This document shows positions 16,817 through 64,000 of a stretch of 64,000 nucleotides of DNA, piece by piece. This stretch comes from an uncultured delta proteobacterium (GTDB taxonomy: Bacteria > Desulfobacterota > Binatia > UBA9968). The stretch covers positions 128,001-192,000 of the forward strand of contig CAVYTU010000009.1 in assembly GCA_963771465.1 (NCBI GenBank), given 5' to 3'. A program made the position numbers and the translations under genes. Within the stretch, counting starts at the first letter, position 1. Each line of letters opens with the position of its first letter. Below the pieces are notes generated by a model, which ran no database searches, had not been told where the DNA came from, and worked only from the letters and a program-made list of their open reading frames with translations.

Positions 16817-16820
16817 ATAC

Positions 16821-25706: not shown

Positions 25707-25709
25707 CTA

Positions 25710-26420: not shown

Positions 26421-26423
26421 CCG

Positions 26424-29278: not shown

Positions 29279-29281
29279 CAA

Positions 29282-29590: not shown

Positions 29591-30093
29591 TTTTTGTTAT
29601 AGAAAAGGCATAAAATTGGTAAAGCGCGCTTGGAAAGCGGTTGCTTTAGTTGAACTGGTGGTTGCAGCAGGTGCGCTACTTTTCATCTTTTCGCATTATT
29701 TTTCTTACTCCGTTTTCGTATCAAATCTCCGTCACCAGGCTAACGCTGCACACTTTGCCCAACCACGATAGTGGCGCCTGTTGATTAGTTGCTTGACTTT
29801 CTCCATGCCGCCTGCCTCCCTGCTCCTCTGATTATCACTTCTGCATGCTCAGGACTTTTCTCAAGTCACGTATCTGAGTTTCCAAGGCATCTAATGTTGC
29901 GGCGACACGATTCAATATTTGGGGGTTACGTTTCCATATCCTCCTTTGTAAAGGTAACGCGAGCGAGATAGTCGGCGTCTACCAGATCGCGCCCAAATGA
30001 GAGCTATCCAGAACTCTCCGCGGGAGCTTTTGTGTCCCTTGTTCGCATTTGCCTTGACCCTTTCGATAACCACTGCGGAAAAAATTACAGATG

Positions 30094-31101: not shown

Positions 31102-31909
31102 TCTTTTCCCGTCAGTCAGGTTTTATTTGGTAAGTTCCAGAGGCGCTGAGAATATAATATGAATGATCAAATGCAAGGATCATGTGCAAAGTGTAATTGT
31201 CACGCTTAAGGAAATACATCCACGAGAGTACGCTGCTGACGCCGAACCAAGCCGACACGTCCAGATCGCTGAGCTTCTTTTTCTGCAAACGCGAATCGAC
31301 AGTTTAACCTGATTTTGTAGGCGGTGACTTTTAGCAGGCAAAGTTGCCGTTCAATGGACGACGATGCAACTCCTCCAGTTGCATCTGATTCCACCATAAT
31401 TACCGAACCGTCCTTCGAAAATCAGGGTATGCTGCTTGCTCAAGTCTCCGGTGCCGGGGTGGGAAACCGCAACTGGAAATCACAGCTGGATTCTACATTA
31501 CACCTGGTCAAATTCCTGCCCCGGCACCAAATTTGGGAGGCGAGACAATGAAATCCAAAATGGACGATGGGTGTACATGCCCACGATGTCACGACCCAAT
31601 TCCTGCTCAGTTCTACTGCCGCACCTGCGGCTACCTGCCGGACTGGCGGCAGATGGCGCAGGAGAAGAACGAGGTATCCAGCGAGGCGGCATAGGCGTGA
31701 GCTAGTTAAGGAGCGTTGAAAATCTCTTGAGCTTCCATCGGTGGAGATGACGACCGCTGCAAGATCTCTACAAGCAAGCGAGTCTTGTCATCCCATCGTT
31801 CGGCTAACTCGGTGTTTGCCGTGATCGCGTCACTAACGCCGACTCATGCCGACTTATACTCAGGGACACCACCGAGCCGACAATCATAACATCCCTTGAT
31901 AAACGCGGA

Positions 31910-31990
31910 TTAATCGCTCAAACCGCGTTGTTGTTCCCGTGCCTCATGCTCAACCCGTCTAAACTCTTCCATTTGTGAAAACGGATAGGC
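31910..31990 (-). pseudogene. Thermonuclease (SNase) C-terminal relic
   Basis: YPFSQMEEFRRVEHEAREQQRGL matches the SNase C-terminal pattern. Confidence 0.5.
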
Positions 31991-32594
31991 CGTATTAAAC
32001 GTGTCCACCGTGGTTAAAGTATCGCGGTGGTGTAGAACTAGGCAGCAAATTGGCCTGCGTACCCGCATGGCTGATTGCGATGGGGCGGTATTAGTGATTG
32101 ACAAACAGCTGTAACGTGGGCAATAGACGCAACAAAATACGGAGCGATAGATCGTAAAAGATTATTCGCATGCCTGGCGCTTTTGCTGGGACTGACAAGC
32201 CCGCTTCTTGCTGACGACACCGATAAATGGAAGCTGCGCCAGCAGCAAGACGAGTTGCGTGAAGAGTACGACAAAATGCGCCGTCAACACGAAGAGCAGC
32301 TGCGCCAGTTTGAGGAACGACAAAGGCGGATCAAACAGCTTAGGCGGAATCGACGGCCGCGCGAGGGCACAAAAGGGCAAGGCGTGGAGTCCGGCTCGTA
32401 ATATCAAAAAATTTTATTGGGCTTGGAGCTTCACGCCGTTGGGTGGCATCCGATCGACGCGTGCCCCACACATCGCCCCCTTCTTACCCAGGCCTTTCCA
32501 GACCTCTAGCCTCCCACTATTCCCCCAAGCCTGTTTGGGCTAATGAGGTTGTGAAGCGACTACACTGCTGTCTCCCTCCCGTTTGGATCGCCCG

Positions 32595-33835
32595 CTACGG
32601 CCGCGACGCGGGGTGTTGGGTGACCGCGTTGGGAGCTTTACCGGGCACAAAGGCGCCTGATTTGTAGAAACATCCCTTGACCACGTTGGGCACGGGATCA
32701 CCCTGCTGAAAAAAATCTTGATTGCATTGAAAAGACCCGCTTAGGTTGTCGCGATAAACAAAGCCAGTGAGATTTCCAAACGCAACTCTAGAAACTCCCG
32801 CAGGCAGCACGCAGCGTGAATCCTGCCACGTACAAATCGTGTGTCCCGGTAACGCTGGCGGCGCGTAGGTCACCCCGATCGTGGCCTCTGTCGCAGTCAT
32901 GCCTTTATTTTCAAACCATATCGGCACGCGAGGCTCTTGCCAAATATCTTTGATAAAGCCCCAAAATTGCGAGCTGTTGGGATTGCTGAGCGCCGCCTGT
33001 TCGATGATCAGACCGACGGGCTTACCCGCCGACAAACCCGTACCGTTTCGATACGTGACGAAGTAAGTAAAGCCGTCGGCCTTGGATACCGTGAGTCCTT
33101 TAGCCCTGGATCCTGGGTGTCCATCGCCTTGATGGTGTGCGTGCCAGGGGCGACGACATCGGTAAGCGTCGGCTGTTTGCCGTTGTTGAGCCAGCCAGCG
33201 CGCAGCCGATTCCACGGACCGAACGGGCCCCCTGAGTTCCCCATCACTTCATTGGTGTTGCAATACTGAGAGCCACCGCCGACGCCCTGCGCGCAACCCG
33301 AATGATAAGCCCAAACAATACCGTGACCGATAAGTTCGTGGCCGACGACACCCCAACTGTAATCGCCGGTGAACGCCGCGCTTTGCGAAGGGTAAGTGCC
33401 CATCGATGAAGTGCCTCGGCCAAATGGACATTGAGATTGCGGCATCAAGGACATGAAGGCGTCGTACTGCGTAAGCGGACAACCTTGTGCCTCGGCTGTG
33501 GCTCTCCCTTGGGCATGAACCGTAGCCGGCTGACACGTTTGCGAGGTGAGCGTCGTGTTGACCACAATCACGTCACCGCCTGGCTGATTGGGATTCCTAA
33601 CGCCGACCAGCCACATACCGCCATAACTCGACTCGCGTGTGTTCTTGTCAATTTCGGCCCTCAAAGCGCGCGCCTGAGATTCATTCAACGCATTGGTCCT
33701 ATCCGTGTAGTTGGCGACGATCCACAAGACACGCTTGGGTCCGGTGACATTGCGAATCACCGGGACTTGGGCGTGGGCGTTCTTCGACAGGCTCAGGATG
33801 AGCGGCGATGCGATGAAAAGGGATAACAATAGCAA
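32595..33835 (-). pseudogene. Secreted zinc metallopeptidase (M11/M6-like) with small Cys-rich C-terminal domain; frameshift ~33100
   Basis: Signal peptide, GHELIGHG...H, EVMG Met-turn, RAGWL; C-terminal C..FG..C.N..F.GDP...K.C. Confidence 0.6.
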
Positions 33836-34688
33836 TGTGAGCGTGAATCGTGGTCGTGTTTGTCTCAGTGGTTTATGCCTTTAAGCACCCTCGCTTCCTT
33901 CATCCACCTGTATGTGCGAATCAGGTCCGCGTCGCGCATCGGTTGCTCGCCGATTCAGCTTAGCCGCTGACAGGTTTCGTCATCCATTCCTACCTCGCGG
34001 GGATGATGAGAAGTAAATATGCTGCGTTGCCGAGGCACGACGTCACGTTGCCACCGCCAATGATCGACGCCCTCTTCTCTCGGAAGTGAACGGCTAGATC
34101 ATTCATCTTGTCCACAGCACCGGGCCGCATGCCGCTTTCCTATCTATTTGGTCATGCAATGTTCCAAACTTTACCTTGTTCTCGATCCACTTTTAGTGAC
34201 ATAGCCCAACTATTATTAAATTCGGCGCCATCTTAGCCGACTTTTTGACCAAGTGTCGCGATACGTGGTTGCTCGAAGCGGCCATTTTGAAAAAGGCGGA
34301 CCTATTCTTCAAAAGATCCAATGTGTGCAACAACGGCGAATCGCGATACTCTGTGAAGACATCAGGCGCATAACCTCCTCGTCATAGCGCGACCGTTGAG
34401 GCTGCCAGTAGATCGCGATATAAGGAAGGTGCTTGGCTCGTCCCAGCCCTAGGACGGTCATTTGTTTCTCTGGTTTTTCCGCAACCATTGGACTTTAACG
34501 TGCAAAGCCAGGTGTTGATTCAATCTGAATCAATAATGAGGAATGTCAGCAACGGTCGGACGATTCTGAAAGGAAGGGAACCTTCTGAGAGTGGAATAAT
34601 TATATTTTTGTCTTGCCAGATTTGCTGAGCTTATTTTGGCGCTGTTTCTTCGACGCTTTGCGGACTTTTTTTGCTCCCCGGATCTTTT

Positions 34689-35923: not shown

Positions 35924-36541
35924 TCATAGACCTACGGAGTCCGAAAAGCGCAACAGATTGGCGTCGCATCCCTGTGCCTTTTTTGGGACGTCAATGTAAG
36001 TGAGTTCCCGGTTGTCATTGACACAGCGCAGCAATAAGCCGCCGCGACTCATGTCGCCCCGACCGATAAACTCTGCGGGGACGCGTAGCCGACGTGCGAA
36101 TATCGGACTCAATAAATTCAAATATTTGCCTGTGGCGATACTTCCCAACAGCACCACTTCGCACTCGGACCCAATCGCGCTATCGAGCTGCTTCGCGCTG
36201 CATCGAAGTGAAGAACAATAGAGCTGGTTCCTAACGTCAATCGCGCCCCGACTGAATAGCCGCAGTGTCGATATTCGAATCAGCATATCGTGCGGTACGA
36301 GACCCATGGTCGGCGTAATGATAAAAATCCCAGCGCAATCGGCAGGCGGCCGCGCAAAAGTCTGTGCATAGGAGACCTTGCCACGAAAATACAGCGAGCT
36401 CACAAAACTAAAAACCTCTGACAGCGGAACACCCGACCCACGTAGGCGTTTCGCCAGCTTTGATGAGCTGGCTTTTGTGAGCAGGCAACGGGCGCGTACG
36501 CCATTACAATTCGCCGGCGAAAGCACAAAAACACGGTTCAT
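35924..36541 (-). CDS. Conserved hypothetical protein coupled to polX (possibly YaaA/DUF6884-like)
   Basis: ATGA overlap with polX stop; SSLYFRGK..YA...IITPTMGLVP pattern. Confidence 0.75.
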   Translation of the reverse strand: MNRVFVLSPANCNGVRARCLLTKASSSKLAKRLRGSGVPLSEVFSFVSSLYFRGKVSYAQTFARPPADCAGIFIITPTMGLVPHDMLIRISTLRLFSRGAIDVRNQLYCSSLRCSAKQLDSAIGSECEVVLLGSIATGKYLNLLSPIFARRLRVPAEFIGRGDMSRGGLLLRCVNDNRELTYIDVPKKAQGCDANLLRFSDSVGL

Positions 36542-38244
36542 GGATGAATGGCCCGCATGAAATCCTCTACACCGAGGGTATTCAAAACCTCTCCACGCAT
36601 GAGCCAGCCACGCCGGGCCATCGACACGCCAAAAGGCAAATTTGCCAAGCCAGCAATGGAATGTGCGTCCGTCGATACGATGAATTTAATGCCGCGATTG
36701 CGAGCCAGGCGAATCCAATGCGGCTCCAGATCGAGCCGGTGTGGGTCGCCGTTGACCTCGATAGCGCAGCGGGATTCAGCGACGGCGTCCAATACTTCTT
36801 CCAACCGGCAAGCAAACGGTGGCCGCGAGGGGATCAGTCGTCCGAGCGGATGACCCCAGACTTTGAAGATCGGCAATTTCAGCGCGCGCAATAGCCGCCG
36901 GGTCATTTGATCGGCATCCATCTTGTGTCGCGCGTGAATACTGGCGATGACGATATCGAATTGGTTTAACAAATAGTCGGGATAGTCCAGGGACCCGTCT
37001 TCGAGAATGTCCGATTCGGTGCCTTTCAATAGTCTGATACTCACGCGTTCCTGTACCCGAGCGATCTCGTCCCACTGCGCCCGCAATCGATCGATTCCTA
37101 GACCCCCTGCATAGGATGCGCTCTGCGAATGATCGGTAATCGTCAGATAGCTCATGCCCATGGCTTGGGCCGCCAACGCCATCTCTTCGATACTGTTGCG
37201 GCCATCGGAATAGTCCGTGTGGCAATGAGTCATACCCCGAATGTCTTCAAGCGCTAGCGGTTGGGGCAGCGTTCCATTACTAGCCGCCTCAACCTCACCT
37301 TCATCCTCGCGCAGCTCCGGCGGGATATATTGAAGTCCCAAGTGCTGATAGATTTCACTTTCGCTCCCCATACCGCGTTGTTTGCCGCCGCCACACTCGA
37401 CAAGATAAGGCAACTCGCGGGAGTGCGATATCTCTTGGAGTTTAGCGAGGTGCTTCGCCGAACCGGTCCGGGCGTGTAGTGTGGCGATATACGCGTCTGG
37501 CGATACCACTACGAGTTCCGTCTGCAAACCTCCCGCTAGGCGACCACGGCATCGTGTCTCGTCTAGCTCATCAGTGTGGGCCAGCGGGGGGAAGCCCAGA
37601 AATCGATCAATCACTGCTCTCGGTTGATCGCTGGCAGCCACGATACAAATCTGTCGTATGGTTTCTTGGCGCCGCCGGAGCGCTCCCGCAACCTGCGCAT
37701 CGATCAACTCTGAACATGTTCGCAAATGTTGCAGGATCTGCTCCGCTTGTTCCACAGCTTGATTGAGCAATAGGAAATTTTCGTCGCGGTTTTCCAGCTT
37801 TTCAATCCCTGCGAGTATCCTTGCCTGAGATTTCGTGCCGAATCCCTTCACGTTGCCCACCAGGCCTTCTTTACAAGCCGCTTTAAGATCAGCGACACTC
37901 TCAATCCGCAGGTCGTCGTACAGCGCGATAATTTTCTTGAGGCTTAGTCCAGGAACGTCGCTCAACTCGATGACTCCAGGCGGCAGCCCTTGGCAGAGCT
38001 GCTGAAGCATCCAACACTCACCCGTGCTGTAGATCTCTTCGATGATCGAAGAGAGCGCATTGCCAATGCCGGGAATTTCTCTTAGGCGCCGGTCTTTGAC
38101 GAGATCGTCAAGATCGCCCTCAAGACTTCCCAGGGCTTCCGCACCTCGAATGAATGCTAACGTTTTAAAACGATTTTCACCTTTTATTTCGAGCAGGCGG
38201 GCGATCGTCCTAAGATCTGCGGCGATATCGAACCTATCCTTCAT
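36538..38244 (-). CDS. polX: PolX/PHP protein with degenerate polymerase site
   Basis: KGENRFK, HhH motifs, AGALRRRQET, intact PHP motifs HCHTDYSDG, TDHS, GHP, STDAH. Confidence 0.9.
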   Translation of the reverse strand: MKDRFDIAADLRTIARLLEIKGENRFKTLAFIRGAEALGSLEGDLDDLVKDRRLREIPGIGNALSSIIEEIYSTGECWMLQQLCQGLPPGVIELSDVPGLSLKKIIALYDDLRIESVADLKAACKEGLVGNVKGFGTKSQARILAGIEKLENRDENFLLLNQAVEQAEQILQHLRTCSELIDAQVAGALRRRQETIRQICIVAASDQPRAVIDRFLGFPPLAHTDELDETRCRGRLAGGLQTELVVVSPDAYIATLHARTGSAKHLAKLQEISHSRELPYLVECGGGKQRGMGSESEIYQHLGLQYIPPELREDEGEVEAASNGTLPQPLALEDIRGMTHCHTDYSDGRNSIEEMALAAQAMGMSYLTITDHSQSASYAGGLGIDRLRAQWDEIARVQERVSIRLLKGTESDILEDGSLDYPDYLLNQFDIVIASIHARHKMDADQMTRRLLRALKLPIFKVWGHPLGRLIPSRPPFACRLEEVLDAVAESRCAIEVNGDPHRLDLEPHWIRLARNRGIKFIVSTDAHSIAGLANLPFGVSMARRGWLMRGEVLNTLGVEDFMRAIHP

Positions 38245-38262
38245 GGTCCTTGCTGCCGTTAA

Positions 38263-40861
38263 CTATCGTCTGTAACCTAGCTTTTTCATCATCGTTTTAG
38301 TTACGGATTGCCGTAGTGACATAAACTCTTTCCATGGATCACGCTTTAGCCGCTTTAACCGATCAGGAACATTCTTGACGTTAAAATAATCGTAGCGCAC
38401 GTCCCGAGCGATCTCCGCCCATTCAATCGGCGTCGAAACCGGCGCGTTGGCTTTCGCGCGAATCGAATAAGCTGCCACTGCCGTTGAGCCCTCTCCGTTG
38501 CGCAGGTAATCAATAAAAATCTTGCCGTGTCGAGACACTTTAAGAAGCTTGCTGGTGAAACGATCCGGAAAGGTTTGGACGAACAGTTCGGCAATCGTTT
38601 GGCTAAAACCTTTTATCTCCTCCCAGGGTAATGTGGGTGTGATTGGAATAACGACATGCAGGCCTTTGCCGCCCGTAGTTTTCAAAAATCCGCGCAGGCC
38701 TAGGCTGTCGAGCAGAGTCTTTAATAAATTCACTGCTTCGGTAATCTTCTCCCATTCGAGGGATTCGTCGGGATCAAAGTCGAAAACGATGCGGTCGGGG
38801 AAATCTAACTTAGGTTTGCGCGATCCCCATGGGTGCAGCTCCAGGGTTCCCATTTGCGTCAGCGCCACAAGCGCGCTTACAGAGTTAGCCATCATATACG
38901 AAGCAGGGCCTCCGCTATCATGAACAGCAACTCGATCGATGACTTCCGCCACGCTTTGATCGGCATGTTTTTGGTAAAAACACTCCTTATTCCACCCATT
39001 GGGACATCTCAGTAGTGTAAGCGGCCGATTTCGGAGGTGCGGAATTACCCAATCACCGATCGATTCATAATAAACCGCGAGATCTCGTTTCGTAATCGCG
39101 GCCTCCGGGTAAAGGACTTTGTCTGGGTTGGTCAGCTTGACGCCGGCGACAATATCGTGGGCCTTTCCCGCAATCGTTTTGATTTTCTTTCGCCGCGATA
39201 AACTCAACTCCGATGCCTGGGAAGGGTTTGAGGTAACATTTATAACCGGTTCTTCACGCACGATATCTCGCGCCCTTTTGTCTTTGCGCAGGCCTAGGAA
39301 AGACGGGTTGCGTAGGATTGCGTCAGAAGTCCATTCTGTAAATGCAACTTGGGCAACGAGTTCCGGCTTAACCCAATGGGCGCGCCGTCCTTCTATCCCC
39401 TTAGGCGGGTTTACAAATGATGGCCTATCCTGAATCAGCGAATCCAAAGTCTTCCGAAACTGCACGAGGAATGAATGATCGAATCCAGTGCCGACTTTAC
39501 CTGCATAACGCAATTTACCGACGGGGTCATAAACCCCGATCAAAAGAGCACCGAATCCTTGACGCGAGCCTTCCGGATCAGTGAATCCACCGACGACGAA
39601 TTCCTGCTGTTTTCCGCATTTTACTTTGAGCCAGGAGTCACTGCGCGAACCCGTATACTTCGAAGTCCGAAGTTTCGAAATCATTCCCTCGAGCCCAAGA
39701 TTGCGGACTTCGGCAAAAAACTTCGGCCCAGTCACGTTGAAATGGTCGCTATAGCGAATGCTGCTTGCCGTCGGTATAACGCGTTTTAACAACGCCTTTC
39801 GTTGCTCTAGACCGACCTCACGTAAGTCATAACCATTCAAATATGGCAGGTCGAATAAATAGTAGAGTTCCCCGCCCGTTGCTTTTGTCGAAAGCGCATT
39901 TTGCAATGCCTGGAAGCTGCTACGTCCTTGGGCGTCCAGACTCACAATTTCACCGTCGACCCAAGCGTTTTCTATGGGTAAGTCCAGCAATGCCTTTGCT
40001 ATGAGGGGAAATTCCGCAGTCCATTCTCGATGATTACGCGAATAGATGTGAACCGTATTCCCCTCAATTCGGCCCAGCATTCGATATCCGTCATATTTGA
40101 TTTCATGTACCCATCGGTCGCTTGTGGGAGCGCTGTCGGTCGATTTTGCGAGCTGTGGATTAATGAGATCTGGGAGCGCAGATTTTCGCGCTCCAACTAT
40201 ATTTGCTAAATCGATCCGCGCTCTCACCTTTCTACGAACACCGTTCTTGACGTTTTCTGAAACAGACTTGTTCGAGTGCCAAACCCGCGCTGGATCGGCG
40301 GCAATCTGTTTAAGGCTGCGATGGGTCGTAACGCTATCGGGTTGATCATCGACCACACGCGCATCGCTTCCCGTACGCGCGTATTCGTCATCCTCTTTGA
40401 AAAGGAGCCACGCATTATCGCCGTATTTGCCGCCGCGGCTCTTTACTAGAGTCCACCCACCCTGAAGTTTTTCGCCCTGTAAGCTCGAACTTGAGCTTGC
40501 CATTCTTATAGCCGGCGACAGGATCGCCCGTCGGCAACCAAGTGCCGCGATCCCAAAGCATCACCGTTCCCGCGCCATATTGTTTCGCTGGAATGATTCC
40601 CTCGAACTCGCCGTACTCGATGGGGTGATCTTCGACATGCATCGCGAGCCGTTTATCATTAGGATCAAGACTTGGCCCCTTTGGTACGGCCCAGCTGAGC
40701 AACACGCCGTTGAGCTCCAATCTGAAATCGTAGTGCAAGCGAGAGGCAGCGTGCTTCTGAATTACGAAGGTAAGCCTTCGACCTGTGGGCTTTCCCAGCT
40801 TGCCTCTTGGTTCCGGAGTGCGCTCGAAATCGCGTTTTTTGCGATACAGATCTAGGTCCAT
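38263..40861 (-). CDS. ligD: DNA ligase D (phosphoesterase-ligase-polymerase), one frameshift ~40483
   Basis: [38 protein letters not shown]; spans ORFs 40415-40876 and 38263-40503. Confidence 0.9.
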
Positions 40862-40904
40862 AGAATTAACGAGCAAAACAAACCGAGTGAGAGCTCGGTC
40901 CTGC

Positions 40905-41720
40905 CTATTTGCCCAAATAGAGATTGCGAGCAGTTCGAAGGTGGCTAAAGGCGTCTTTTTTCTTGCCTAGCGCATCGAGAATAAGTCCGAGATTGTAGTG
41001 GGCGTCTGCGAAAGCGGGATCGCGCTCAATCGCCGCCGCGTACGAGCGGGCAGCATCCGCCGGCCGTTTTAAATCTTCCAGAAGAACGCCCAAATTGAAG
41101 TGGGGAGTCGGATCAGCCGCATCGATTGCCAGCGCCGCTCGGTAATGCTTCTCGCTTTGCGCCAATTGCCCTGTCTTGTGGAATAGCCTGCCTAAATTGA
41201 CATGGGCGTCACTAATCGTAGGATCCAGTTCAAGCGCCCTGTGGTAAGCGTTAGTCGCCTCCGCTGGAGATGTTTCCTCTAGCTCGCAACCTTGGCTAAA
41301 CCAGTCTCTGGCAGCGAGGTTCCGTTTTACCGATTTACGCGAAGTCAATTCCGCGGCGCGTAGAACAATATGTGGATCGAAATCGAACAGAAACTGTCCC
41401 GTATCAGGTTGATACTTAACTGTACCGTCCCGAACCACGATACGTTGGCCATCGGCGTAAATTTTGAGTCGTGTCAACGATTCTTCATTGGGAATGCGCT
41501 TCTTCAACGACGACAGAACTCGAATTACTTTTTTTACTGGGACTTTGGCATCGAGGAGGCTCTTGGCAGTTTTCAAAAACAACAGGTCCCGAAAATTGAA
41601 TCGTAACGTTTTCCTATTGTTTCGTTCAGGCACAATAAAACCGGACCGCACGAACGAGCGAACCCGGCTATTCGGCAGATTCAGAATACTGGCCACTTCG
41701 TCGGTGGAAAACAATTTCAT
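40905..41720 (-). CDS. MerR-like HTH plus TPR-repeat protein
   Basis: [10 protein letters not shown]...RFNFRDL N-terminus; DAHVNLG, PHFNLG, DAHYNLG TPRs; ATGA overlap with ku. Confidence 0.85.
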
Positions 41721-42568
41721 TTCTTATTAGAAGACTGCGCTTTTTTCGGTGACATTTCAGTTGATTTCGCTCGAACTGCCGGTTTCCTTTCTTTGGGTAC
41801 GCTTCCTAGACTCTTTTTCAATGCCTCCATTAGGTCAATGACATTGCCTCGTTGCGGCGGAGTTTGAGAGATGGTGATCTCTTCGCCTTCCGCCTTTTTC
41901 TTTACTAAGTCCAACACGCGTTGCGCATACTCGTCCTCATATTTTTCGGGTTCGAAGGCGTCATTTGATAGCTCATCGATCAGACGCATCGCCAGCTTCG
42001 TCTCGGGAGCGGTAATTTTGACGGTTTCCCCTTTGCCAATCTCGTCGAAGCTGCGCACCTCATTGAAAAAATACATCGTATGCATTACCAGCCCTTTTTG
42101 CGCTGGACGAATTATGACGAGGTTCTCTTTACCTCTGAGAACAAATTTCGCAACCGCAACCTTGCCGGCCTGGACCATCGAATCGGTTAGGAGGCGATAC
42201 GCTTTTTCACCCCCTTTATCGGGCCCCAGATAGTAGCTTTTCTCAAAATAAATAGGATCTACTTTTGACAGGGGAACAAATTCCGAGATTTCGATAGCCT
42301 CTGAAGCTTGACCCTCGAGCGCCTTCAGTTCGTCATCCGTCAGTCTGACATATTGGTTCTTCTCGAATTCATATCCTTTCACTAATTCCTCACGTTCGAC
42401 GACTTCTTTGCAAACTGGACAAAAACGCTGCTGCTTGATCCGGCTGCCACATTTTGCGTGCAAAAGGTTAAAACTCGGTGATTCGGACGAAGCCGCTACG
42501 TAGAGATTTACTGGGATTGAAACGAGCCCGAATGAGATCGCGCCGGAGCCTATCGATCGTATTGCCAT
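41717..42568 (-). CDS. ku: Ku protein (NHEJ)
   Basis: GAISFGLVSIPV, KGYEFEK, YYLGP, NVIDLMEALKKS. Confidence 0.95.
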   Translation of the reverse strand: MAIRSIGSGAISFGLVSIPVNLYVAASSESPSFNLLHAKCGSRIKQQRFCPVCKEVVEREELVKGYEFEKNQYVRLTDDELKALEGQASEAIEISEFVPLSKVDPIYFEKSYYLGPDKGGEKAYRLLTDSMVQAGKVAVAKFVLRGKENLVIIRPAQKGLVMHTMYFFNEVRSFDEIGKGETVKITAPETKLAMRLIDELSNDAFEPEKYEDEYAQRVLDLVKKKAEGEEITISQTPPQRGNVIDLMEALKKSLGSVPKERKPAVRAKSTEMSPKKAQSSNKK

Positions 42569-48654: not shown

Positions 48655-49433
48655 ATGATTTCCGAATTAATAAACGATCTTAAGGCGCACACAAACAATT
48701 ATATTGATTGTAATCCGATCTTTACACGTCTTTCTTCCGGCGACATCACACTGTTTCACTACCTCGCCTACCTAAGAGAAAACGTATCACCTCGTAAAGC
48801 ATACGCCTAAATACTTGATGGTCGCCGCTAATCGAGTAGCGGAAAGCGATCAACGACTGTCCGCCTATTTTAGAAAATTTTCTTTTAGAAGAAACCGGAC
48901 AGTTGCTATGCATCAGGGACATTAATGCACTTGGAGAAAACGCGGAGCTTATCATATCTGGCGATCCCAACGCCGGAGCATGGGGAATAGTAACTCAATG
49001 TTATTTTTGGGCCGCCCAAGGCAATCCGGTCGCGCTCCTAGGCGATGCCTTCGCGACCGAAGAGCTTGGCGTCGCAAGGGGCATCGAAGTAGCGAGCCTT
49101 CTTGTGGCGAACTATGGTATTTCGCGTAAAGCAACCAATTTTTTGCGGGTTCATGGGAACGAAGACAATCAGCATCTGGAAGCGGCGGCCGGAGTAATCG
49201 AGTGGTACGCAGCAGATCGTAATCACTACGCTGACATAGATTATGCTACGAGAATGACATACCGATACTACGGCCAGTTATTCACGGATGTTTTGGAACT
49301 GGGCGACAGTTGGAGGCGGAGTTACTACGCAGCTGTCTTTCGCAGTATCGCCCAGGCGATCACGTGGCGCGACGCTACGAGCGTACCAATTCTCGCGGAA
49401 CAGGCAGAAAACCAAACTTCGAGTATTCAGTAA
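48655..49433 (+). pseudogene. Heme-oxygenase-like diiron (iron-containing redox) enzyme, two frameshifts
   Basis: Reconstructed YLAYLRE/TYHLVKHT...EETG...EE...FLRVHGNEDNQH; shifts in an A run (~48780) and a T run (~48885). Confidence 0.65.
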
Positions 49434-49671
49434 GGTTATGTAAACGATACCCTTAGATTTGAGAATGCGCTGGATCTCGCGGAAAGTTTTCTTTCGGTTG
49501 AAGCAGATGTTCGACAACACTGCTCTTCCATCACGCCGTAGGTACGTCGAATCCTAGACCGCGACTTGCATTACGCCGATGCGCTCGGCTCGACGCCCTA
49601 AATATCCCTACCCCGTTGCTTGGCACAATCTGCCATGGACATTCGCTTAACCTTGCGGTAGGTGGTTGATC

Positions 49672-50424
49672 ATGAAAACGGATGAATTTATCGAGGAACT
49701 TTGGGGCTACGCCGCTGAAGTACCGATGGAACAGCATCCATGGTTCGACGGCATCATCAAGCACCGCTGGAGCAAGGAGCAGATCATTCTCGGCGAAGTG
49801 CAGCATTATTTGCGCGTGCGCACCAATCCGATCTTCTTTGGCCATATGGCGATCAACGCGGTGTCGGCGAAGGAATATGCGGTCATGGCAACGGTGTTGG
49901 AAAACTTCATGGAAGAGCTCGGCGGCAAGCGCACGCACGTCGATATCATGCTGCAATTTCTCGAAGAAGGCGGCATCACCCGCAAGGAAGCGGATAACGC
50001 CGAGCCCGCGCCAGGAACTTTAGCCGCCATCGAAATGATCATCGGCTGTTGCCAGCGCCGCTCCGCCCTCGAAGGCGTCGCCATGCTCGCCTTCGTCGAA
50101 AGCCAACTCGGTGGCGAGGGAAAGATTTCGGAAAAAGTTTATCGCGAGCTTACCGGATACTACGGATTCACAGCGCGCGCCGCGGCAACCTACCAACTGC
50201 ACGCTGCCCAAGACGAAGGACACGGCAGCCGGCAAATCGATGCAATACGAATGCTCGCCACCGATACAACAAGCCAAAACAAGATTCGCGCCGCGGTAAA
50301 ACTTGGCCTGACGGCATTCACGTTAGAATGGGACGGTCATGTTCAGGCGATGACGGGGAAGCGGGAATTTTGGGGTGGCGTGGCCGATTTGAAACTACGT
50401 CAACCTAAAGTGAAACTGGCATAA
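49672..50424 (+). CDS. TenA/PqqC/CADD-like heme-oxygenase-fold oxidase
   Basis: QHPWF, ENFMEE...THVD, VESQ, YQLHAAQDEGH metal ligands. Confidence 0.85.
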   Translation: MKTDEFIEELWGYAAEVPMEQHPWFDGIIKHRWSKEQIILGEVQHYLRVRTNPIFFGHMAINAVSAKEYAVMATVLENFMEELGGKRTHVDIMLQFLEEGGITRKEADNAEPAPGTLAAIEMIIGCCQRRSALEGVAMLAFVESQLGGEGKISEKVYRELTGYYGFTARAAATYQLHAAQDEGHGSRQIDAIRMLATDTTSQNKIRAAVKLGLTAFTLEWDGHVQAMTGKREFWGGVADLKLRQPKVKLA

Positions 50425-51139: not shown

Positions 51140-52155
51140 TTACTTCAGCCTGCCTTCTGCGCGCAGTTCCTGCTGTGCGATCTTGAGAATCCGATCGTTG
51201 ACGACTCGATCGAGGGTAAAGTTCTTGTCCACCAGTCCGGCGCGAATATCTTCGTCGAGCATCTGCTGGAGTCCACCGGTTACGATCGACAGATCAGCCG
51301 TGAGACCCGGAGCATACAGATCGTAAGCCGCGTTGACGATATCCGTTTCGCCGCTGAGACCTGACTCGTAGCCCGCTTTGATCGCCTCGCGCTTGTTGAA
51401 TTTGGCCAACTGCATCCCTTGGATGTAAGCTTTGAGCACTCGTTTGCTCATCTCCGGAAATTTTTCCAAAACTTCGTTGCGCGTGACGATAATATTTTGC
51501 GGAATGCCCAGCGACTCGCTTAGATTACTGATCAGGGAATAACCGGCTTTGATGAGCCGAACGCCATCCTCCGGTGAGAACGGCGCCGCGGCGATTATCC
51601 CTTCTCGATGGCCGCCGCGCGCAATACGGTGCCGCCGATCGCTCGCAGCGTGACATCCTTGTCTGGGTTGATATTGTGTTTCTTGAGGAAAGCCTTCATG
51701 GCGAATTCTGAGTAGGTTCCGGCGCCGGTCACGCCGATCATCTTGCCTCTGAGGTCTTCCACCGTGCGCGTCTGCTTGTTGCCGAGCAAAATGTAATTGG
51801 TCGTGCTCGAAGTGCAACCGACTATCGATAAATCCAATCCCCGAGATCGGCTGCGAAAAACCGCCTGCGCGCCGCCGATGGCGGCGAAATCAACTTCTCC
51901 GGAAACCAGAGCGGCGATTGCCGCGGGCCCGCCGCGAATCAGGATCGGCTCGACGCTCAGCCCCTGCTGTTTGAAAAATCCACGCGCCAGCGCGACGCGA
52001 AAAGGAATCTCGCTATTCCAAGCGAGGCTGACGAATACCATGCGAACGTTCTTCTTTTCCTGCGCCAGGGGGAGTGTAGCGCTCAAGAGCACGGCAAGAA
52101 GGCAAATCCCGAATTGCGATAATCTTCGAATACCCATCACGCCAGTCCTCTTCAC
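51140..52155 (-). CDS. NMT1/TauA-type ABC substrate-binding protein, 1-nt frameshift ~51600
   Basis: Signal peptide, GFFKQQGL, ALVSGEVDF, DLRGKMIGV; AIEKG/IIAAAPF junction lacks one G in a G run. Confidence 0.85.
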
Positions 52156-52613
52156 CGTTTCGCGTACACCGTCATCTTGCCGTTCTTATCGAAGGTGAAA
52201 ACCGTATACGGCTCCGGCTTGCCGCCTTCCATGCCCGGCGAGCCCACCGGCATGCCTGGCACGGCGAGGCCGAGCACCGGCGGTTTCTCTTTTAACAATT
52301 TGTCGATCAAGTCCGCCGGCACGTGACCTTCTATGACGTAGCCGTCGATCACAGCGGTATGACAGGAACGCAGTTTCTCAGGGACATTGTGCTTAATTTT
52401 TACATCAACAAGCTTGCTGCTCATCACGTTCTTCTTGTCGACTTTGAATCCATTCGCTTGTAGGTGCCCGACCCACCCAGTGCAGCAGCCTCAGCCGGGG
52501 TCTTGATAGACGGTGATTGATTTGGCGGCGGGTTTAGTTTGAGCTTCCAGCCGTACTGCGACGAATGCGAAGCAGATTAAAAACCAAATGATGGCAAATT
52601 GGCGATGTCGCAT
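52152..52613 (-). CDS. DUF411/CopG-like periplasmic metal-binding protein with Sec (U41-G-C-C)
   Basis: GAGGAG RBS, signal peptide, VYQDPG-TGA-GCCTGWVGHL in frame with SCHTA, EGHVPA, GLAVPGMPVGSPGME. Confidence 0.85.
52461..52479 (-). promoter_or_regulatory. SECIS-like hairpin
   Basis: UGGGUG-GGUCGGG-CACCUA stem-loop after an 11-nt spacer from the UGA at 52491-52493; loop starts with G. Confidence 0.65.
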
Positions 52614-52788
52614 GTGAACTCCTCGCCCCATGCAATTTAGCAGATCGATCGACATAAAAGCGAGCCTGCGGCTGCACCACCGCTATGTTTTGCTCAGCTG
52701 CCACGCGTGAAATTGTCGCCGCTGCACTTGACAGAGAAGCCCCTTCACCTGTTAATTAGGAGCATTTCGAAAGAAAGATATACGAACC

Positions 52789-55270: not shown

Positions 55271-57499
55271 ATGGCTTACAAGAGCGTCAACAAGTCAGTT
55301 CCCCGCATCGAAGGTGCAGACAAAGTCTCCGGCAAAATGCGCTATGCGGCGGACTTGGATTTTCCCAATGCGCTGGCGGCGAAGATTTTGCGCACCTCAT
55401 TGCCGCATGCAAAGATTGTCACCATCGATACCAGCAAAGCGTTAAAGCTCAGCGGCGTGCGCGCGGTCATTACCGGCGCCGATGTGGGCGGTGTGATGGT
55501 CGGTTTGCGCATGAAAGACATGCCGCTGCTTGCCACCGATCGCGTACGTTACGTCGGCGAACCCGTGGCCGCGGTGGCCGCCGACGACGATGATATCGCT
55601 GAAGAGGCTTTGAATTTGATCGATGTACAGTACCAAGAACTGCCCTACGTCACGGACCCGGTGAAAGCGATCGAACCCGGCGCGCCGGTGCTGCACGACA
55701 ATCCGATGGCGTATAAAAATGCCCCGGAGCGCGACACCGAGCTGCCCAACGTGCAATCCTACGGCAAGTGGTCCAATGGCGATCTCAAAGCTGGATTCGC
55801 CAAGGCGGCGCGTATCTTCGAGCATACCTTTCGCACGCCACTAGCCTTTCATGGGTACATCGAACCGCACGCTTGCACCGTGCAGATTCACGACGAGGGC
55901 CGCGTCGAAATCTGGGCATCGAACAAAGCGCCTTTCACGCTGCGCGCTCGTTTTGCACGCGATCTCGGTCTCGACGAAGCGAAAGTCAAAGTGCACATTC
56001 TGCCGGTGGGCGGCGACTTTGGCGGCAAGACTTCGGTTGTCGAGGCGCCGGTGTGTTATTTTCTCGCGCAGAAGACCAAGAAGCCCGTCAGGATGGTGCT
56101 CGAATACACCGAAGAGCTGACTGCGATCTCGCATCGCCATCCCGCGGTGATTACACTGCGCACGGGTGTCGATGCGGATAACAAACTCTGCGCCATGGCG
56201 GTGCGCGCTGTGTTCAGCGGCGGTGGCTATGCGGCGCTCAAAGCGAACGCCGAAGTCACGGTGCAAGGCCCGCGGCGCGCTGCGAGTTATTACCGCATCC
56301 CGGCGATCCAAGTCGAAACCCTGTGCGCCTACACCAACCAGGTGCCGTGCACTCAGACGCGCACGCCGGGCAGTCCGCAGACGACCTTTGCCGTGGAATC
56401 GCAGATCGATATCATCGCCCGTGAATTGGCCATGGACCCTGTGGAATTTCGCTTGAAGAATTTGCTCAACGCCGGGGACCCGACGCCGTTCGGGCAAAAA
56501 CTCCAAGGCATCGTCGTCAAAGAGACGCTGCAAAAAGCGCTCGAAGTGTCCGGCTGGAAAAAGCCGAAAGCGAAAAACATTGGCCGCGGGGTGGCGGTTT
56601 ACGAGCGCCCGTCCGGCGCGGGAAAATCCGGCGCGGCAATCACCATCGAAACCAACGGCAAGGTATCGGTGCATCTTGGTGTGCCCGATGTCGGCCCGGG
56701 CATACACACAGTCGTCCAACAAATCGTCAGCGAGGTGCTCGATCTTGCGCGCGAGCGCGTCAGTGTCCGCGTCGAAGATACCGACCACTCGCCTTTCGAC
56801 TCCGGCACCGGCGGCAGCAAGTCTACCAACAGCGTCGGCACCGCGGCGTATCAAGCCGTCAATGAAATCAAAGAAAAATTTATCGCTCTGGCAGCCACAG
56901 AGTTGGGCTGCAAGACCGAAGATCTAAAAGCGGAGAATGGCCGCTACATCGCGCCAGGCCACAAAGCGCTGTCATGCAGCGATCTGATGGCACTCGCAGT
57001 AAAGCGAAATAACGGCTCGCTCACGCATTTGAGCGTTTACGAGCCGGCGCGCGCGCCGATCACATCCTTTGCCGCCCAGGTTGCCGAAGTTGAAGTCGAT
57101 CCCGGCACCGGCCAAGTGAAAGTCAAAAAGCTCGCGACGGTGCACGATTCGGGAACCGTGTTGAATCATTTAAGCTACACCGGCCAGATCGACGGCGGTG
57201 TAATCACCGGCATCGGCTTCGCGCTGATGGAAGATAATTCGTTGGTCGACGGCAAGATGCCGACGGCAAATCTTGGTGAGTTCAAAATGGCGACGGTAGC
57301 CGACGTGCCCAAACTTACGACGGTGTTAATGGAAGCCCCAGCAGGGCCGATTCCCTATCACGGCAAAGCGATCGCCGAGATTCCCAACGTGCCGACCGCC
57401 GCCGCGATCGCCAACGCCGTCCACGACGCCATCGGACTGCGTATATATGATCTGCCGATTACAGCGGAGAAAGTCTATGCGGCGCTGAACAAGCGCTAA
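55271..57499 (+). CDS. Xanthine dehydrogenase family molybdopterin-binding subunit
   Basis: DKVSGKMRY, LPHA, GGDFGGK, GQIDGG, DLPITAEKV. Confidence 0.92.
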   Translation: MAYKSVNKSVPRIEGADKVSGKMRYAADLDFPNALAAKILRTSLPHAKIVTIDTSKALKLSGVRAVITGADVGGVMVGLRMKDMPLLATDRVRYVGEPVAAVAADDDDIAEEALNLIDVQYQELPYVTDPVKAIEPGAPVLHDNPMAYKNAPERDTELPNVQSYGKWSNGDLKAGFAKAARIFEHTFRTPLAFHGYIEPHACTVQIHDEGRVEIWASNKAPFTLRARFARDLGLDEAKVKVHILPVGGDFGGKTSVVEAPVCYFLAQKTKKPVRMVLEYTEELTAISHRHPAVITLRTGVDADNKLCAMAVRAVFSGGGYAALKANAEVTVQGPRRAASYYRIPAIQVETLCAYTNQVPCTQTRTPGSPQTTFAVESQIDIIARELAMDPVEFRLKNLLNAGDPTPFGQKLQGIVVKETLQKALEVSGWKKPKAKNIGRGVAVYERPSGAGKSGAAITIETNGKVSVHLGVPDVGPGIHTVVQQIVSEVLDLARERVSVRVEDTDHSPFDSGTGGSKSTNSVGTAAYQAVNEIKEKFIALAATELGCKTEDLKAENGRYIAPGHKALSCSDLMALAVKRNNGSLTHLSVYEPARAPITSFAAQVAEVEVDPGTGQVKVKKLATVHDSGTVLNHLSYTGQIDGGVITGIGFALMEDNSLVDGKMPTANLGEFKMATVADVPKLTTVLMEAPAGPIPYHGKAIAEIPNVPTAAAIANAVHDAIGLRIYDLPITAEKVYAALNKR

Positions 57500-60744: not shown

Positions 60745-63567
60745 TTATTTGTCCTTGAGGTAATACGCTTCCAACGCTGGCTTGTACGACCGCGGCAGCC
60801 AGTAAGGTCGGCGCAGATTATCCGGTCCAGGTGCGGGCCGCGTTTTTAACATCCACTTTTTATACACCTCGTGCGACTTGTTGGTATCGACGAACACGTC
60901 GCCGTACTTATCGTCGGGGCCGGGTTTGGTGATGCGAACTTTTTGGTGCCAGCAATGCTGGCCGCTGATGAAGTCGGGCTGCACCGGAAACGTGAGGTTC
61001 TGGTGCACGCCGCCGTCTTGCCAAAAGATGCGGCTGGAATCCGGATCGTCGCTCTTGAATGGTTTGATGCCGTGAATCGTGCGCATCATCCACTTGCCTT
61101 CGCCCATTTGTTTGAGATCGACTAATGCCGTCGACCAACGTTCGCCTCCCTGCTCTTCGGCCAAACGCCAGCGGCCAAGATGGTGTGAGCAGGCGATGAC
61201 ACCGGGTTTAATGCCTTCGGTGACCCAGACTTTGTCGATGAAGTAACCGATCTCCGTGTGGACTTTAAGCAAGTCGCCGGTCTTCACGTCGAAGTTCTCG
61301 GCGTCCTTTGAATTGAGCCAGAGCGGATTGCGATTGGAAATCTCGTAGAGCCACTTGGCGTTACCCGAGCGCGTATGAATCAACGTCGGCAGACGAAAGG
61401 TCGGCAACAGCAGCATCTCGCCGGCGGTGAGATCGATATTGTCCGGATGCACGTGGCTCTTGATGTAGCCGGGGATCGAGTGTTCCGGCCACTTCCAGTC
61501 TTTGATCGTCTTGGAGAAAAACTCGAGCTTGCGCGACGGCGTCGGGAAACCGACACAGGCTTTGCCGTCGACCTCGACCCCAAGCACGGCGCCGTTGCTG
61601 GAAACAATTTTTGTTTGTGGATCGACGTCCGCGTCGGCGATATCGCCGGCCTTGAGCGCGGCTTCATGAACTTTGTAAACGTTGTCTTCGATCAGAAAGG
61701 CGCCGTACTTACGCATGTAGTCGAGCGCTGTTAGCCCTTGCTTCGCTGCCGCCGCCGGCAACCCTGGCACGCTATTCTCGAAAATCCAGCGATAGTAATC
61801 GTCGACGGTCATCTTTTTACCGGGCTCGTAGGGCGATTCGAAGTATTTGCGAATGCCCAGCGAGCCGTCGGGATCGACGCGCCAGGATAATTCAATCCAG
61901 AACTCATCTTCCTCCCACACTTGGCCGATGCCAGCGGCTTCGTGCGCCTCGTAGGTGGTGTTGAATTTCTTGCCTTGCTTCTCCAAAGCGACACGCAAGA
62001 TGGGCTGGCGAAAGCCGATCCAGCGCGCCGCCTGCGTCTCTTGGCTCATTAGATCATGGCGTTCCGAAGCATGGCCCATCGGCAAAACATAATCGGCGAA
62101 CCACGCCGTCTCGCTCCAGGTCGGCGTTAGACATGCGTGGCGTTCGACTTTGCTTTCATCGGAAAGCATTTCGATCCAACTCATGCCGTCGGGATTGGTC
62201 CACACCGGGTTGTAGACGCGAGTGAAATACATCGCCAGCTTGCCGCGCCCTTCTTTGAGGAAGTGCGGCAGCAAAAAACTCATCTCGAAAAAAGCCAGAG
62301 GAAACTCTTTCGGAATCAGCAGCTCATTCCAAATCTTCGCCGGCGGCGGCATCAACGGCGGCGCCGGAATATATTTATTCGCCGCGTTGGGCGCAGTACC
62401 GCCCACCGTGCCGACCGCACCGACGAGGACGACCAAGAACTGCAGCGCGCGCGCCACCTGCCAGCCGCCAAGATTGCCCGCCGCTGTGTTGCGCCAAACA
62501 TGAGATGAGAAAGCCGAGCCGGCATTGGCGATCTCGTGGGCGACTTCGACGATGACGCCCGGCTCGATGCCGGCTTCCTTGGCGGCGAACTCCGGCGTGA
62601 ACGAAGCGTAGGATGCCTTCAAGACCGCAACAAAAGTCTGAAACGTCTGCGGCTTGTCGCTGTGTTCCTCGCGCAGATATTGTTCCCAGTTAACCCAGTG
62701 GCGCAAAAAATCGCGATCGAAGAGATCTTCTTGCAGCAGCACATTGCACATGGCGAGCAAGATCGCCGCCTCACTGCCAGGCCAAGTCGACATCCAGTAA
62801 TCCGCCTTGGAGGCCGTGTTGGACAAGCGCGTGTCGATGACACAAATCTTCGTGCCCGCTTCCTTCGCCTCGATAATGCGCTGGGCGTGGGGATTGAAGT
62901 AGTGGCCGGACTCAAGATGCGAGCTTAACAACAAAATGAAGCGCGCGTTGGCGTGATCGGGGGATGGCCGGTCGATGCCGGACCAGAATGCGTAACCCGC
63001 GCGAGCGCCGGCAGAACAGACGTTGGTATGACTGTTGTGGCCGTCGATGCCCCAGGAGTGAAGAATACGCTGATGATAGAGCAGCTCATGGCCGGGCCGG
63101 CCAACGTGATACATGATTTCGTTCCGACGCTCTTCTGCGAGCGCCTTACGCACGCGGCCAGCGATGTCATCCAAAACTTCATCCCAGGAAACACGTTCCC
63201 ACTTACCCTCGCCGCGCTTGCCGACTCGCTTTAACGGATAACGAATGCGTTCGGGATCGGTGACTTGATTGAGCGTCGCCGGTCCCTTGGCGCAGTTGCG
63301 CCCGCGGCTGCCGGGATGTTCGGGATTGCCTTCGAAGCGGCGAATCTTATTGGTATCTTTTTCCACCACTGCGACCAGACCGCAGGCCGCTTCGCAGTTG
63401 AAACAAATCGTCGGAATGATCCGGCAATGCTTTTCGACTTTGCGCGGCCACTGCGCCGTATCGTACTCGACCCAGTCGTCCCATTTCTCCACCGGCGGAT
63501 AGCTGGCGAGCCCATTGGGTTCTAATTTGAGCGCGTCCGGATTTAGCGGGATGCGATGATCAGCCAT
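60745..63567 (-). CDS. Molybdopterin-dependent oxidoreductase (DMSO reductase family) catalytic subunit
   Basis: CFNCEAACG...NCAKG 4Fe-4S motif, SHTNVCS, ADYVLP; ATG at 63567 after AAGGA. Confidence 0.9.
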   Translation of the reverse strand: MADHRIPLNPDALKLEPNGLASYPPVEKWDDWVEYDTAQWPRKVEKHCRIIPTICFNCEAACGLVAVVEKDTNKIRRFEGNPEHPGSRGRNCAKGPATLNQVTDPERIRYPLKRVGKRGEGKWERVSWDEVLDDIAGRVRKALAEERRNEIMYHVGRPGHELLYHQRILHSWGIDGHNSHTNVCSAGARAGYAFWSGIDRPSPDHANARFILLLSSHLESGHYFNPHAQRIIEAKEAGTKICVIDTRLSNTASKADYWMSTWPGSEAAILLAMCNVLLQEDLFDRDFLRHWVNWEQYLREEHSDKPQTFQTFVAVLKASYASFTPEFAAKEAGIEPGVIVEVAHEIANAGSAFSSHVWRNTAAGNLGGWQVARALQFLVVLVGAVGTVGGTAPNAANKYIPAPPLMPPPAKIWNELLIPKEFPLAFFEMSFLLPHFLKEGRGKLAMYFTRVYNPVWTNPDGMSWIEMLSDESKVERHACLTPTWSETAWFADYVLPMGHASERHDLMSQETQAARWIGFRQPILRVALEKQGKKFNTTYEAHEAAGIGQVWEEDEFWIELSWRVDPDGSLGIRKYFESPYEPGKKMTVDDYYRWIFENSVPGLPAAAAKQGLTALDYMRKYGAFLIEDNVYKVHEAALKAGDIADADVDPQTKIVSSNGAVLGVEVDGKACVGFPTPSRKLEFFSKTIKDWKWPEHSIPGYIKSHVHPDNIDLTAGEMLLLPTFRLPTLIHTRSGNAKWLYEISNRNPLWLNSKDAENFDVKTGDLLKVHTEIGYFIDKVWVTEGIKPGVIACSHHLGRWRLAEEQGGERWSTALVDLKQMGEGKWMMRTIHGIKPFKSDDPDSSRIFWQDGGVHQNLTFPVQPDFISGQHCWHQKVRITKPGPDDKYGDVFVDTNKSHEVYKKWMLKTRPAPGPDNLRRPYWLPRSYKPALEAYYLKDK

Positions 63568-63578
63568 GAAAAATTCCT

Positions 63579-64000
63579 TTAACTCAGCGGCACAGCCTGG
63601 CCGGCTTTGATCCACAGATGCTCGTACATCCAGAGGCCGAACAAAACTAAAATCGCCGCGATGACGTTGGGCACGATGGAACTAATCGGCCAGAGCATCA
63701 GGATAATCGGCGCCACCGCGCCAAGTCCGATGGCGAAAAGCCAAAACGATTTCGCCAGCGGACCGGTGAGCAATAATTCACCGGCGCGGACCGCGTCTTC
63801 GGCGCCATGTTTCATAAACAACTCGCCGAAGATCATCGCCAGACTGGCGAGCAGCGCGATAACCAAGACCTGATTGAGCCAAGCGAACATCGCCGGCGAC
63901 ATCAGCGCGTAGGGCGTCAATGCCTCTATGCCGCGGAGCAAAATAAAAAACGCCGCGCCGGCAGCGAACGACTGGACGATCAAATGCCAAAACAACATCG
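63579..64000 (-). CDS. NrfD/PsrC-type membrane anchor, 3' part
   Basis: Multiple TM helices, C-terminal AGQAVPLS; directly upstream of the Mo subunit. Confidence 0.75.
   Translation of the reverse strand, partial: MLFWHLIVQSFAAGAAFFILLRGIEALTPYALMSPAMFAWLNQVLVIALLASLAMIFGELFMKHGAEDAVRAGELLLTGPLAKSFWLFAIGLGAVAPIILMLWPISSIVPNVIAAILVLFGLWMYEHLWIKAGQAVPLS

Follow-up and report, generated by a model that had tools for sequence, protein, structure and literature searches.

What does a TGA codon do in the middle of a gene that is otherwise open from start to stop? This question is raised by a DUF411/CopG-like coding sequence on the minus strand of a 64-kb stretch of DNA from an uncultured delta proteobacterium, the whole of which is referred to here as the window. 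The codon stands where CopG proteins carry the first Cys of their CxCC motif, and an earlier note on this DNA had proposed that it encodes selenocysteine (Sec) in an exported UxCC protein. The proposal has gained support from the presence of a TGA in the matching column of 18 among the 80 nearest related loci, a conserved reading frame, a SECIS-compatible hairpin and a CopG fold. The window gene is probably a genuine selenoprotein gene, encoding a CopG/DUF411 protein with Sec in place of the first Cys of CxCC.

The DUF411/CopG-like gene and its product

The gene occupies positions 52152..52613 of the minus strand and comprises 153 codons plus a stop when the TGA at codon 41 is read through. 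Its ATG lies at 52613..52611 and its terminal TGA at 52154..52152. A Shine-Dalgarno-like GAGGAG (52624..52619, minus strand), read directly in the sequence 5 nt ahead of the ATG, bears out the ribosome-binding site that had been claimed for the gene. The proposed Sec codon (52493..52491, minus strand) is in frame and falls on the first Cys column of CxCC. Reading it as U yields 153 residues, containing ...ITVYQDPG-U-GCCTGWVGHL... with U at codon 41. Genetic table 11 instead breaks the gene into a 54-aa piece ending in ...ITVYQDPG and a 91-aa piece. At the N-terminus, the basic MRHRQ is followed by the hydrophobic FAIIWFLICFAFVAV and then by RLEA, a pattern read by eye that points to a probable signal peptide spanning residues 1 to about 24 (52542..52613, minus strand). 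Comparable hydrophobic N-termini are present in the relatives inspected. Based on homology and on this reading of the N-terminus, the protein is predicted to be exported.

The read-through protein scores 96 bits against the Pfam family DUF411 (PF04214; cut-off 27, E=1e-27), and the matched region, residues 81-128 (52230..52373, minus strand), holds C84, H85, H97, M121 and M128. The sole solved relative is CopG of P. aeruginosa (6WIS/6WJE), found by phmmer in the PDB through 6WIS with E=1e-30 over residues 32-151. In this alignment the U-G-C-C of the window protein (52482..52493, minus strand), counterpart of the copper-binding CxCC, stands opposite the C-G-C-C of CopG. Moreover, an AlphaFold model built from a 21-sequence alignment has a mean pLDDT of 91, and Foldseek superposes it on 6WIS with a TM-score of 0.90 on the target, an rmsd of 1.6 Å and 46% identity. 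Thioredoxins and glutaredoxins appear as distant structural matches of the model. The earlier assignment to DUF411/CopG is thus upheld, as is the claim that VYQDPG-TGA-GCCTGW runs in frame with the DUF411 core, both being parts of a single 153-residue read-through frame. Going by the model and these matches, fold and family membership can be confidently assigned to CopG/DUF411.

In the model, strand 1 covers residues 31-37 and helix 1 residues 42-53, and U41 caps the latter at its N-terminal end. This is also the place of the attacking Cys in thioredoxin-fold CxxC proteins. The signal-peptide region contains a separate helix, residues 3-22, whose pLDDT is lower, at 68-76. The window protein resembles CopG in sequence, in fold and in the positions of xCC, C84/H85, H97, M121 and M128; alignment A2 shows no variation at C43, C44, C84, H85, H97, M121 and M128, all of which the window protein possesses. 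The difference lies in the first Cys of CxCC, which is encoded by TGA in the window protein, so the motif is chemically equivalent to that of CopG only if the residue is Sec. Passages of a review (PMC7558416) describe CopG as a periplasmic, thioredoxin-like protein which carries a tetranuclear Cu cluster bound by CxCC and two Met, plays a part in copper resistance under anaerobic conditions, and has been proposed to oxidize Cu(I) and to hand copper over to other cuproproteins.

The gene further differs from CopG in having no cop, cus or multicopper-oxidase neighbours, and no copper export, oxidase or cuproenzyme genes flank it within the 64-kb window. Directly downstream lies an NMT1-like periplasmic binding protein gene (51140..52155, minus strand), which is possibly co-transcribed with the DUF411 gene. 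It is frameshifted in the window by the loss of one base from a run of G, possibly through a sequencing error. On the other flank is a divergent GFO/IDH/MocA oxidoreductase gene. The same order of oxidoreductase, DUF411 and NMT1-like genes is found in the nearest genomic relative, locus L001. Linkage to copper genes is common in the DUF411/CopG family, and it is not required. Among the 18 related TGA loci, only three have copper-related neighbours, namely a P-type ATPase with a two-component system (L058), a cytochrome oxidase with CtaG (L011), and a NosD-like gene with an ABC-2 permease (L012). The 18 loci are heterogeneous and share no conserved neighbourhood in the 94 of 149 ORFs that were scanned.

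Exchange of TGA and cysteine codons among relatives

Relatives were collected by a scan of one genome per species; at least 468 were confirmed, and the 80 best of them were compared. The codon at the motif column is TGA in 18 of these loci, TGC in 46 and TGT in 16, giving 62 Cys forms in total; the 80 loci are the nearest relatives of the query, and 18/80 is therefore not a family-wide frequency. The TGA loci are distributed over Gemmatimonadota (six: L006, L012, L016, L017, L034 and L048), Chloroflexota (five: L011, L058, L059, L062 and L072), Acidobacteriota (three: L022, L068 and L080), Methylomirabilota/Rokubacteria (two: L020 and L037) and Binatia (L003), with one more, L001, in a record titled 'delta proteobacterium'. 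All 18 have an upstream open frame of 44-152 codons with start codons, and their printed upstream translations show hydrophobic leaders and a conserved TVYxxPx strand. L001 shares 70% protein identity and synteny with the window gene and keeps the TGA amid synonymous changes. The earlier note had called for a look at Cys/TGA interchange in this column, and had named a TGA unique to this assembly, or Cys in all close relatives, as grounds for giving up the idea. The interchange exists at the first Cys of CxCC (18 TGA versus 62 TGC/TGT), the TGA recurs in 18 loci outside the assembly, and L001 is joined by 17 further relatives in carrying it.

On a maximum-likelihood gene tree, the TGA label needs 12 changes, compared to a mean of 17.1 after shuffling (0/500 shuffles as low); the tree is a quick and poorly resolved one, built on 121 columns with SH-aLRT support only. 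Its well-supported branches force at least two changes between TGA and Cys, which implies more than one origin or loss of the TGA form. Only Cys forms occur in one half of the tree, whose 35 rows are mainly Pseudomonadota and Cyanobacteriota.

The coding frame is preserved throughout. Between 30 codons upstream and the true stop, the 81 genes are free of any further in-frame stop, and none of them contains a frameshift. In the eight codons upstream of the TGA, the TGA forms have a third-position entropy of 1.33 bits versus 0.69 and 0.69 for the other two positions. Downstream of the TGA, the values are 1.22 bits versus 0.60 and 0.75. The pattern on both sides is like that of the Cys forms, and coding constraint is kept on both sides of the TGA. 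The signal beyond chance is a comparative one, consisting of the recurrence of TGA at one column and the lack of any other in-frame stop.

Public annotation appears to carry the trace of the same codon. Of the 120 best matches in the protein database, 96 have a length of 90-131 aa and cover 59-70% of the query. All ten of the matches inspected begin past the CC of the motif, as would result from a gene caller halting at the TGA. The NCBI record of a close relative is such a truncation, of 106 aa, named only 'DUF411 domain-containing protein'. Additionally, three metagenome proteins have W at the motif column, which may reflect a gene caller using a table with TGA as Trp.

The hairpin behind the TGA and the Sec machinery

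The prototype of the bacterial SECIS is that of E. coli fdhF. A hairpin with a G-starting loop after an 11-nt spacer had been described for the window gene, and it is indeed there. The core (52461..52479, minus strand) has a 6-bp stem and the 7-nt loop GGUCGGG and begins 11 nt past the UGA. Counted from the U of UGA, U15-G20 pair with C28-A33, and positions 4-14 form the spacer. A constrained fold adds a 4-bp outer stem, giving an extended element at 52455..52487 (minus strand). In our own simplified implementation of four published bSECIS constraints, taken from the legend of Fig. 2 of PMC13188914, the window element falls within all four, with a 17-nt spacing between UGA and loop, G in the first two loop positions, a 6-bp upper stem and -10.7 kcal/mol. 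In these values and in its 7-nt loop starting GG, it resembles the bSECIS consensus of the bSECISearch model. However, it differs from that consensus in that its stem is largely dictated by the W-V-x-H-L codons and that the Rfam SECIS families give no match in the window, where only two tRNAs reach the gathering score. At E up to 10, Rfam returns only chance snoRNA fragments around the TGA.

Comparison between forms is more telling than the single fold. The bSECIS constraints are passed by 17 of 19 TGA forms versus 32 of 62 Cys forms (Fisher p=0.003), in a simplified test whose specificity is low, 52% of the Cys forms passing it. When stems are required to be perfect and to place their loop at positions 19-31, the longest one has a median length of 7 bp among the 19 TGA forms and of 4 bp among the 62 Cys forms (p=0.0002). 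In the consensus helix, formed by columns 16-24 and 28-36, the share of cells that pair is 71.9% in register and 34-48% once the partner is slid, and double-sided changes number 13 cells versus 4.6 in shuffles (0/500). The inner pairs of the hairpin follow from the conserved W-V-x-H-L codons and also form in Cys forms, and the pairs added mainly in TGA forms are 18-34, 21-31 and 24-28. Within the same amino-acid context, TGA forms make 7.2 of nine pairs versus 5.8 in Cys forms, a modest gap (p=0.019). Four Chloroflexota TGA forms have stems of only 3-4 bp at the consensus position; the bSECIS test rejects two of these and accepts the other two only by virtue of a loop lying further downstream. 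All these hairpin statistics ignore shared ancestry between the sequences. Overall folding energy was also considered as SECIS evidence and turned out to be uninformative. The 66-nt fold of the window has -13.8 kcal/mol and z=+1.01, with 173 of 200 shuffles folding at least as well, and TGA and Cys forms do not differ in their 48-nt minimum free energy (p=0.88). Taken as a whole, the hairpin evidence is consistent with a SECIS and enriched in TGA forms, yet it is not decisive. The SECIS signal appears to be built by tightening a hairpin half provided by the conserved W-V-x-H-L codons.

The search for Sec machinery gave no positive result in the DNA covered. No selA, selB, selD or tRNA-Sec occurs within the 64-kb window, and no tRNA-Sec in the 18 TGA loci. 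Likewise, a second selenoprotein did not emerge in the window from Pfam searches of 60 of the 69 TGA-containing extended ORFs, none of which has a domain spanning the TGA; the other nine were either the DUF411 gene itself or ORFs already complete, with only a short read-through tail. Filtering reduced the 814 candidates in the TGA-locus flanks to 87, and the 23 of these scanned by Pfam contain no TGA-spanning domain. NCBIfam gives no selenoprotein or DUF411 model match, only a sub-threshold glutaredoxin-like one (E=0.007). Reassignment of the genetic code is ruled out, as TGA is an ordinary stop that ends nine of the 29 Pfam-supported ORFs, the DUF411 gene's own end included. Elsewhere, passages of published reports give 63 predicted selenoprotein genes for a Methylomirabilota MAG (PMC13188914), 46-49 for Chloroflexota (Dehalococcoidia) MAGs (PMC13326102), and three known selenoprotein genes for an Acidobacteriota isolate (PMC12013277). 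By these passages, Sec use is thus reported in some of the phyla that carry the TGA form, namely Methylomirabilota, Chloroflexota and Acidobacteriota.

Competing readings and the probable place of the protein among selenoproteins

A stop codon inside a gene also admits readings in which selenium plays no part. The UGA might be read through by a near-cognate tRNA inserting Cys or Trp at low efficiency, or serve as a leaky regulatory stop, and the full-length protein would then be selenium-free. This would suit the lack of Sec machinery in the 64-kb window and the TGA-locus flanks examined, the thermodynamically ordinary hairpin, and the W at the motif column in three metagenome proteins. However, TGA acts as a normal stop in 9/29 supported ORFs, and, as in known selenoproteins, the internal stop is confined to a Cys column with redox and metal activity. 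Together with the enrichment of the SECIS-compatible hairpin in TGA forms and the reports, in the passages cited, of Sec use in Methylomirabilota, Chloroflexota and Acidobacteriota (PMC13188914, PMC13326102, PMC12013277), these points make Sec-free read-through quite unlikely. It is very unlikely that only the part behind the TGA is made, starting from the 91-aa ORF at 52427 or from a GTG near the W-V codons, as the public annotation of most close relatives has it (96 of 120 best matches at 90-131 aa). The product would be a cytoplasmic fragment without signal peptide or CxCC motif, lacking strand 1, the metal motif and, depending on the start, part or all of helix 1, whereas the eight codons upstream of the TGA and the signal-peptide region are in frame and constrained in 19/19 TGA forms.

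The remaining readings take the TGA as damage, either of the gene or of its record. The adjoining NMT1-like gene is frameshifted, and the stretch is hence not free of lesions, a point in favour of a nonsense pseudogene that is dead in the window genome. Against such decay, 18 other loci, spread over at least five phyla, have the identical codon lesion; the 81 genes contain no additional stop or frameshift, and their coding constraint is kept; and the syntenic L001, with 70% protein identity, has retained the TGA among synonymous changes. A pseudogene is accordingly very improbable. The one-base deletion in the G run next door could itself be a sequencing error, and a further error might have turned TGC or TGT into TGA. 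The neighbouring lesion is an indel and not a substitution, however, and TGA is found in 18 independent assemblies and implied by the truncation of 96 of 120 best matches, so an error at this codon is extremely improbable.

For the selenoprotein reading, we infer a course that comprises Sec insertion, export, copper binding and a chemical advantage of selenium. Translation would start at the ATG at 52613. The UGA at codon 41 would be recoded as Sec, with SelB and Sec-tRNA(Sec) binding the hairpin that begins 11 nt downstream. The 153-residue precursor would then be exported with the removal of about 24 N-terminal residues. In the mature thioredoxin-fold protein, helix 1 would have U41 at its N-terminus, next to C43 and C44 and with C84/H85, H97, M121 and M128 close by. 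By analogy with P. aeruginosa CopG, this site may hold a multinuclear copper cluster and interconvert or pass on Cu(I)/Cu(II), with U41 as a putative ligand or redox centre. As ligand or redox centre, the selenolate would be softer, a better nucleophile and more tolerant of oxidation.

Two groups of known selenoproteins come close to this protein. Table 1 of the 2026 review PMC13188914 lists Trx, Grx, DsbA-like, DsbG-like and thiol:disulfide interchange proteins as UxxC families. The window protein shares with such thioredoxin-fold families the replacement of the motif's N-terminal Cys by a predicted Sec at the start of helix 1. It differs from them in that its motif is UxCC, with one-residue spacing in place of UxxC, and in that theirs is a simple dithiol whereas a CopG-type site is a metal cluster. 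Among metal-handling proteins, the review includes the SO_0444 family Cu/Zn efflux transporter (UxC), a cation-transporting E1-E2 ATPase (UxxC), a YHS-domain protein, a CopZ-family 2Fe-2S protein and a MerT-like protein (PMC13188914). These resemble the window protein in having a predicted Sec in a metal-binding motif, but their folds are unrelated and none belongs to DUF411/PF04214.

Both DUF411/PF04214 and the UxCC motif are absent from that table, which covers 119 prokaryotic families and subfamilies. No paper joining DUF411 with selenocysteine was found in full-text literature. As far as the listed entries go, the literature on COG3019 contains no evident selenoprotein link, and the titles listed for CopG with selenoprotein all concern eukaryotic topics. 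Selenocysteine combined with CopG and copper resistance leads, by title and the start of the abstract, to one Pseudomonas genome paper only. None of the papers listed for four lineage names contains 'selenoprotein'. Neither DUF411 nor CopG is named in the main text of the GOS paper, the deep-Sep paper or BSepDB, or in the part of the BSepDB supplement examined, outside which Table S2 perhaps lies. Apparently, the Sec form of CopG/DUF411 is unrecorded and systematically mis-annotated. The recoding mechanism is probably conventional Sec insertion and the fold the known CopG fold, the new element being the Sec form.

A broader proposal can be advanced only tentatively. The TGA forms may make up a widespread family, as yet uncatalogued, of exported selenoproteins with a UxCC motif in phyla of soil and groundwater (Binatia, Gemmatimonadota, Acidobacteriota, Chloroflexota and Methylomirabilota). 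In this family, Sec would coordinate directly to a multinuclear copper cluster in the periplasm, and would have been interchanged with Cys more than once. Mo/W-Se and Ni-Se sites occur in formate dehydrogenases and hydrogenases. A Cu-Se(Cys) site, if real, would be to our knowledge the first natural one.

If confirmed, DUF411/CopG would be an added prokaryotic selenoprotein family. It would also expose an annotation error, the closest database entries being fragments without the signal peptide and the metal motif. Furthermore, it would tie selenium use to extracytoplasmic copper handling in abundant and poorly studied soil phyla. The coexisting Sec and Cys forms would offer a natural experiment on the role of selenium in a copper cluster, and a comparison of U41 with U41C would bear on the Cu(I)/Cu(II) role proposed for CopG.

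Gene order and spacing around the DUF411 gene

The DUF411 gene (52152..52613, minus strand) and its nearest relative at L001, a genomic locus from a record titled 'delta proteobacterium', share one gene order: a GFO/IDH/MocA oxidoreductase and an amidohydrolase, then DUF411 and the NMT1-like protein. In the window, the NMT1-like gene may start at a GTG that shares bases with the stop codon TGA of DUF411, the two together reading GTGA (52152..52155, minus strand); at L001 a gap of about 40 nt (10392..10433) separates the two.

The NMT1-like periplasmic binding-protein gene of the window (51140..52155, minus strand), located directly 3' of DUF411, is read in two overlapping frames with a break near 51598..51605 (minus strand). 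Its counterpart at L001 is intact (338 aa), and the two window pieces align to this protein with 79% and 80% identity, meeting at ...AAIEKG | IIAAAPF. Because a GGG run lies at the same place as the break, the frameshift is either genuine or a sequencing error in the homopolymer. Further along, at 48903..50424 (plus strand), two neighbouring ORFs, one of 176 aa and one of 252 aa, belong by sequence match to the Haem_oxygenas_2 / TENA-PQQC-like family, of which L001 carries a single 251-aa homologue close by; the 176-aa ORF may be a paralogue or a remnant.

Other gene groups of the window

Xanthine-dehydrogenase-type molybdopterin-binding subunits are encoded at 1346..3613 (minus strand) and 55271..57499 (plus strand). 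A molybdopterin oxidoreductase of 956 aa (60745..63615, minus strand) has no in-frame stop over its reading frame and is therefore ruled out as a Sec-type formate dehydrogenase.

A long region with few Pfam matches (about 10381..34000) adjoins genes for tRNA-Lys (10381..10456) and tRNA-Glu (16821..16898), the latter immediately followed by a phage-integrase SAM-like fragment (17292..17948); the region is thus a possible genomic island or other element that has integrated here. The window also carries a non-homologous end-joining cluster (36538..42568, minus strand). Its genes encode Ku (41717..42568), a MerR/TPR protein (40905..41720), a LigD that has both ligase and primase-polymerase domains (38263..40503), and a polymerase of the PolX/PHP type (36538..38244).

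The Sec column and copper-related neighbours in relatives

Among four protein-database relatives (P0003, P0004, P0005 and P0007), the column of the proposed Sec codon, i.e., the first Cys of CxCC, is occupied by W in three full-length metagenome proteins and by S in one. The source contigs of the three W-bearing proteins are about 1 kb long, and the W may reflect the gene caller's choice of a TGA=Trp table on short contigs.

Copper-related genes adjoin some of the TGA-form DUF411 genes. At the Gemmatimonadota locus L012, the neighbours are a NosD-like gene and an ABC-2 permease (12567..15699). Of two Chloroflexota loci, L011 carries CtaG, COX3, COX4 and COX1 (10104..13671), and L058 has genes for a P-type ATPase, a histidine kinase and a response regulator immediately upstream of DUF411 (5692..9960).
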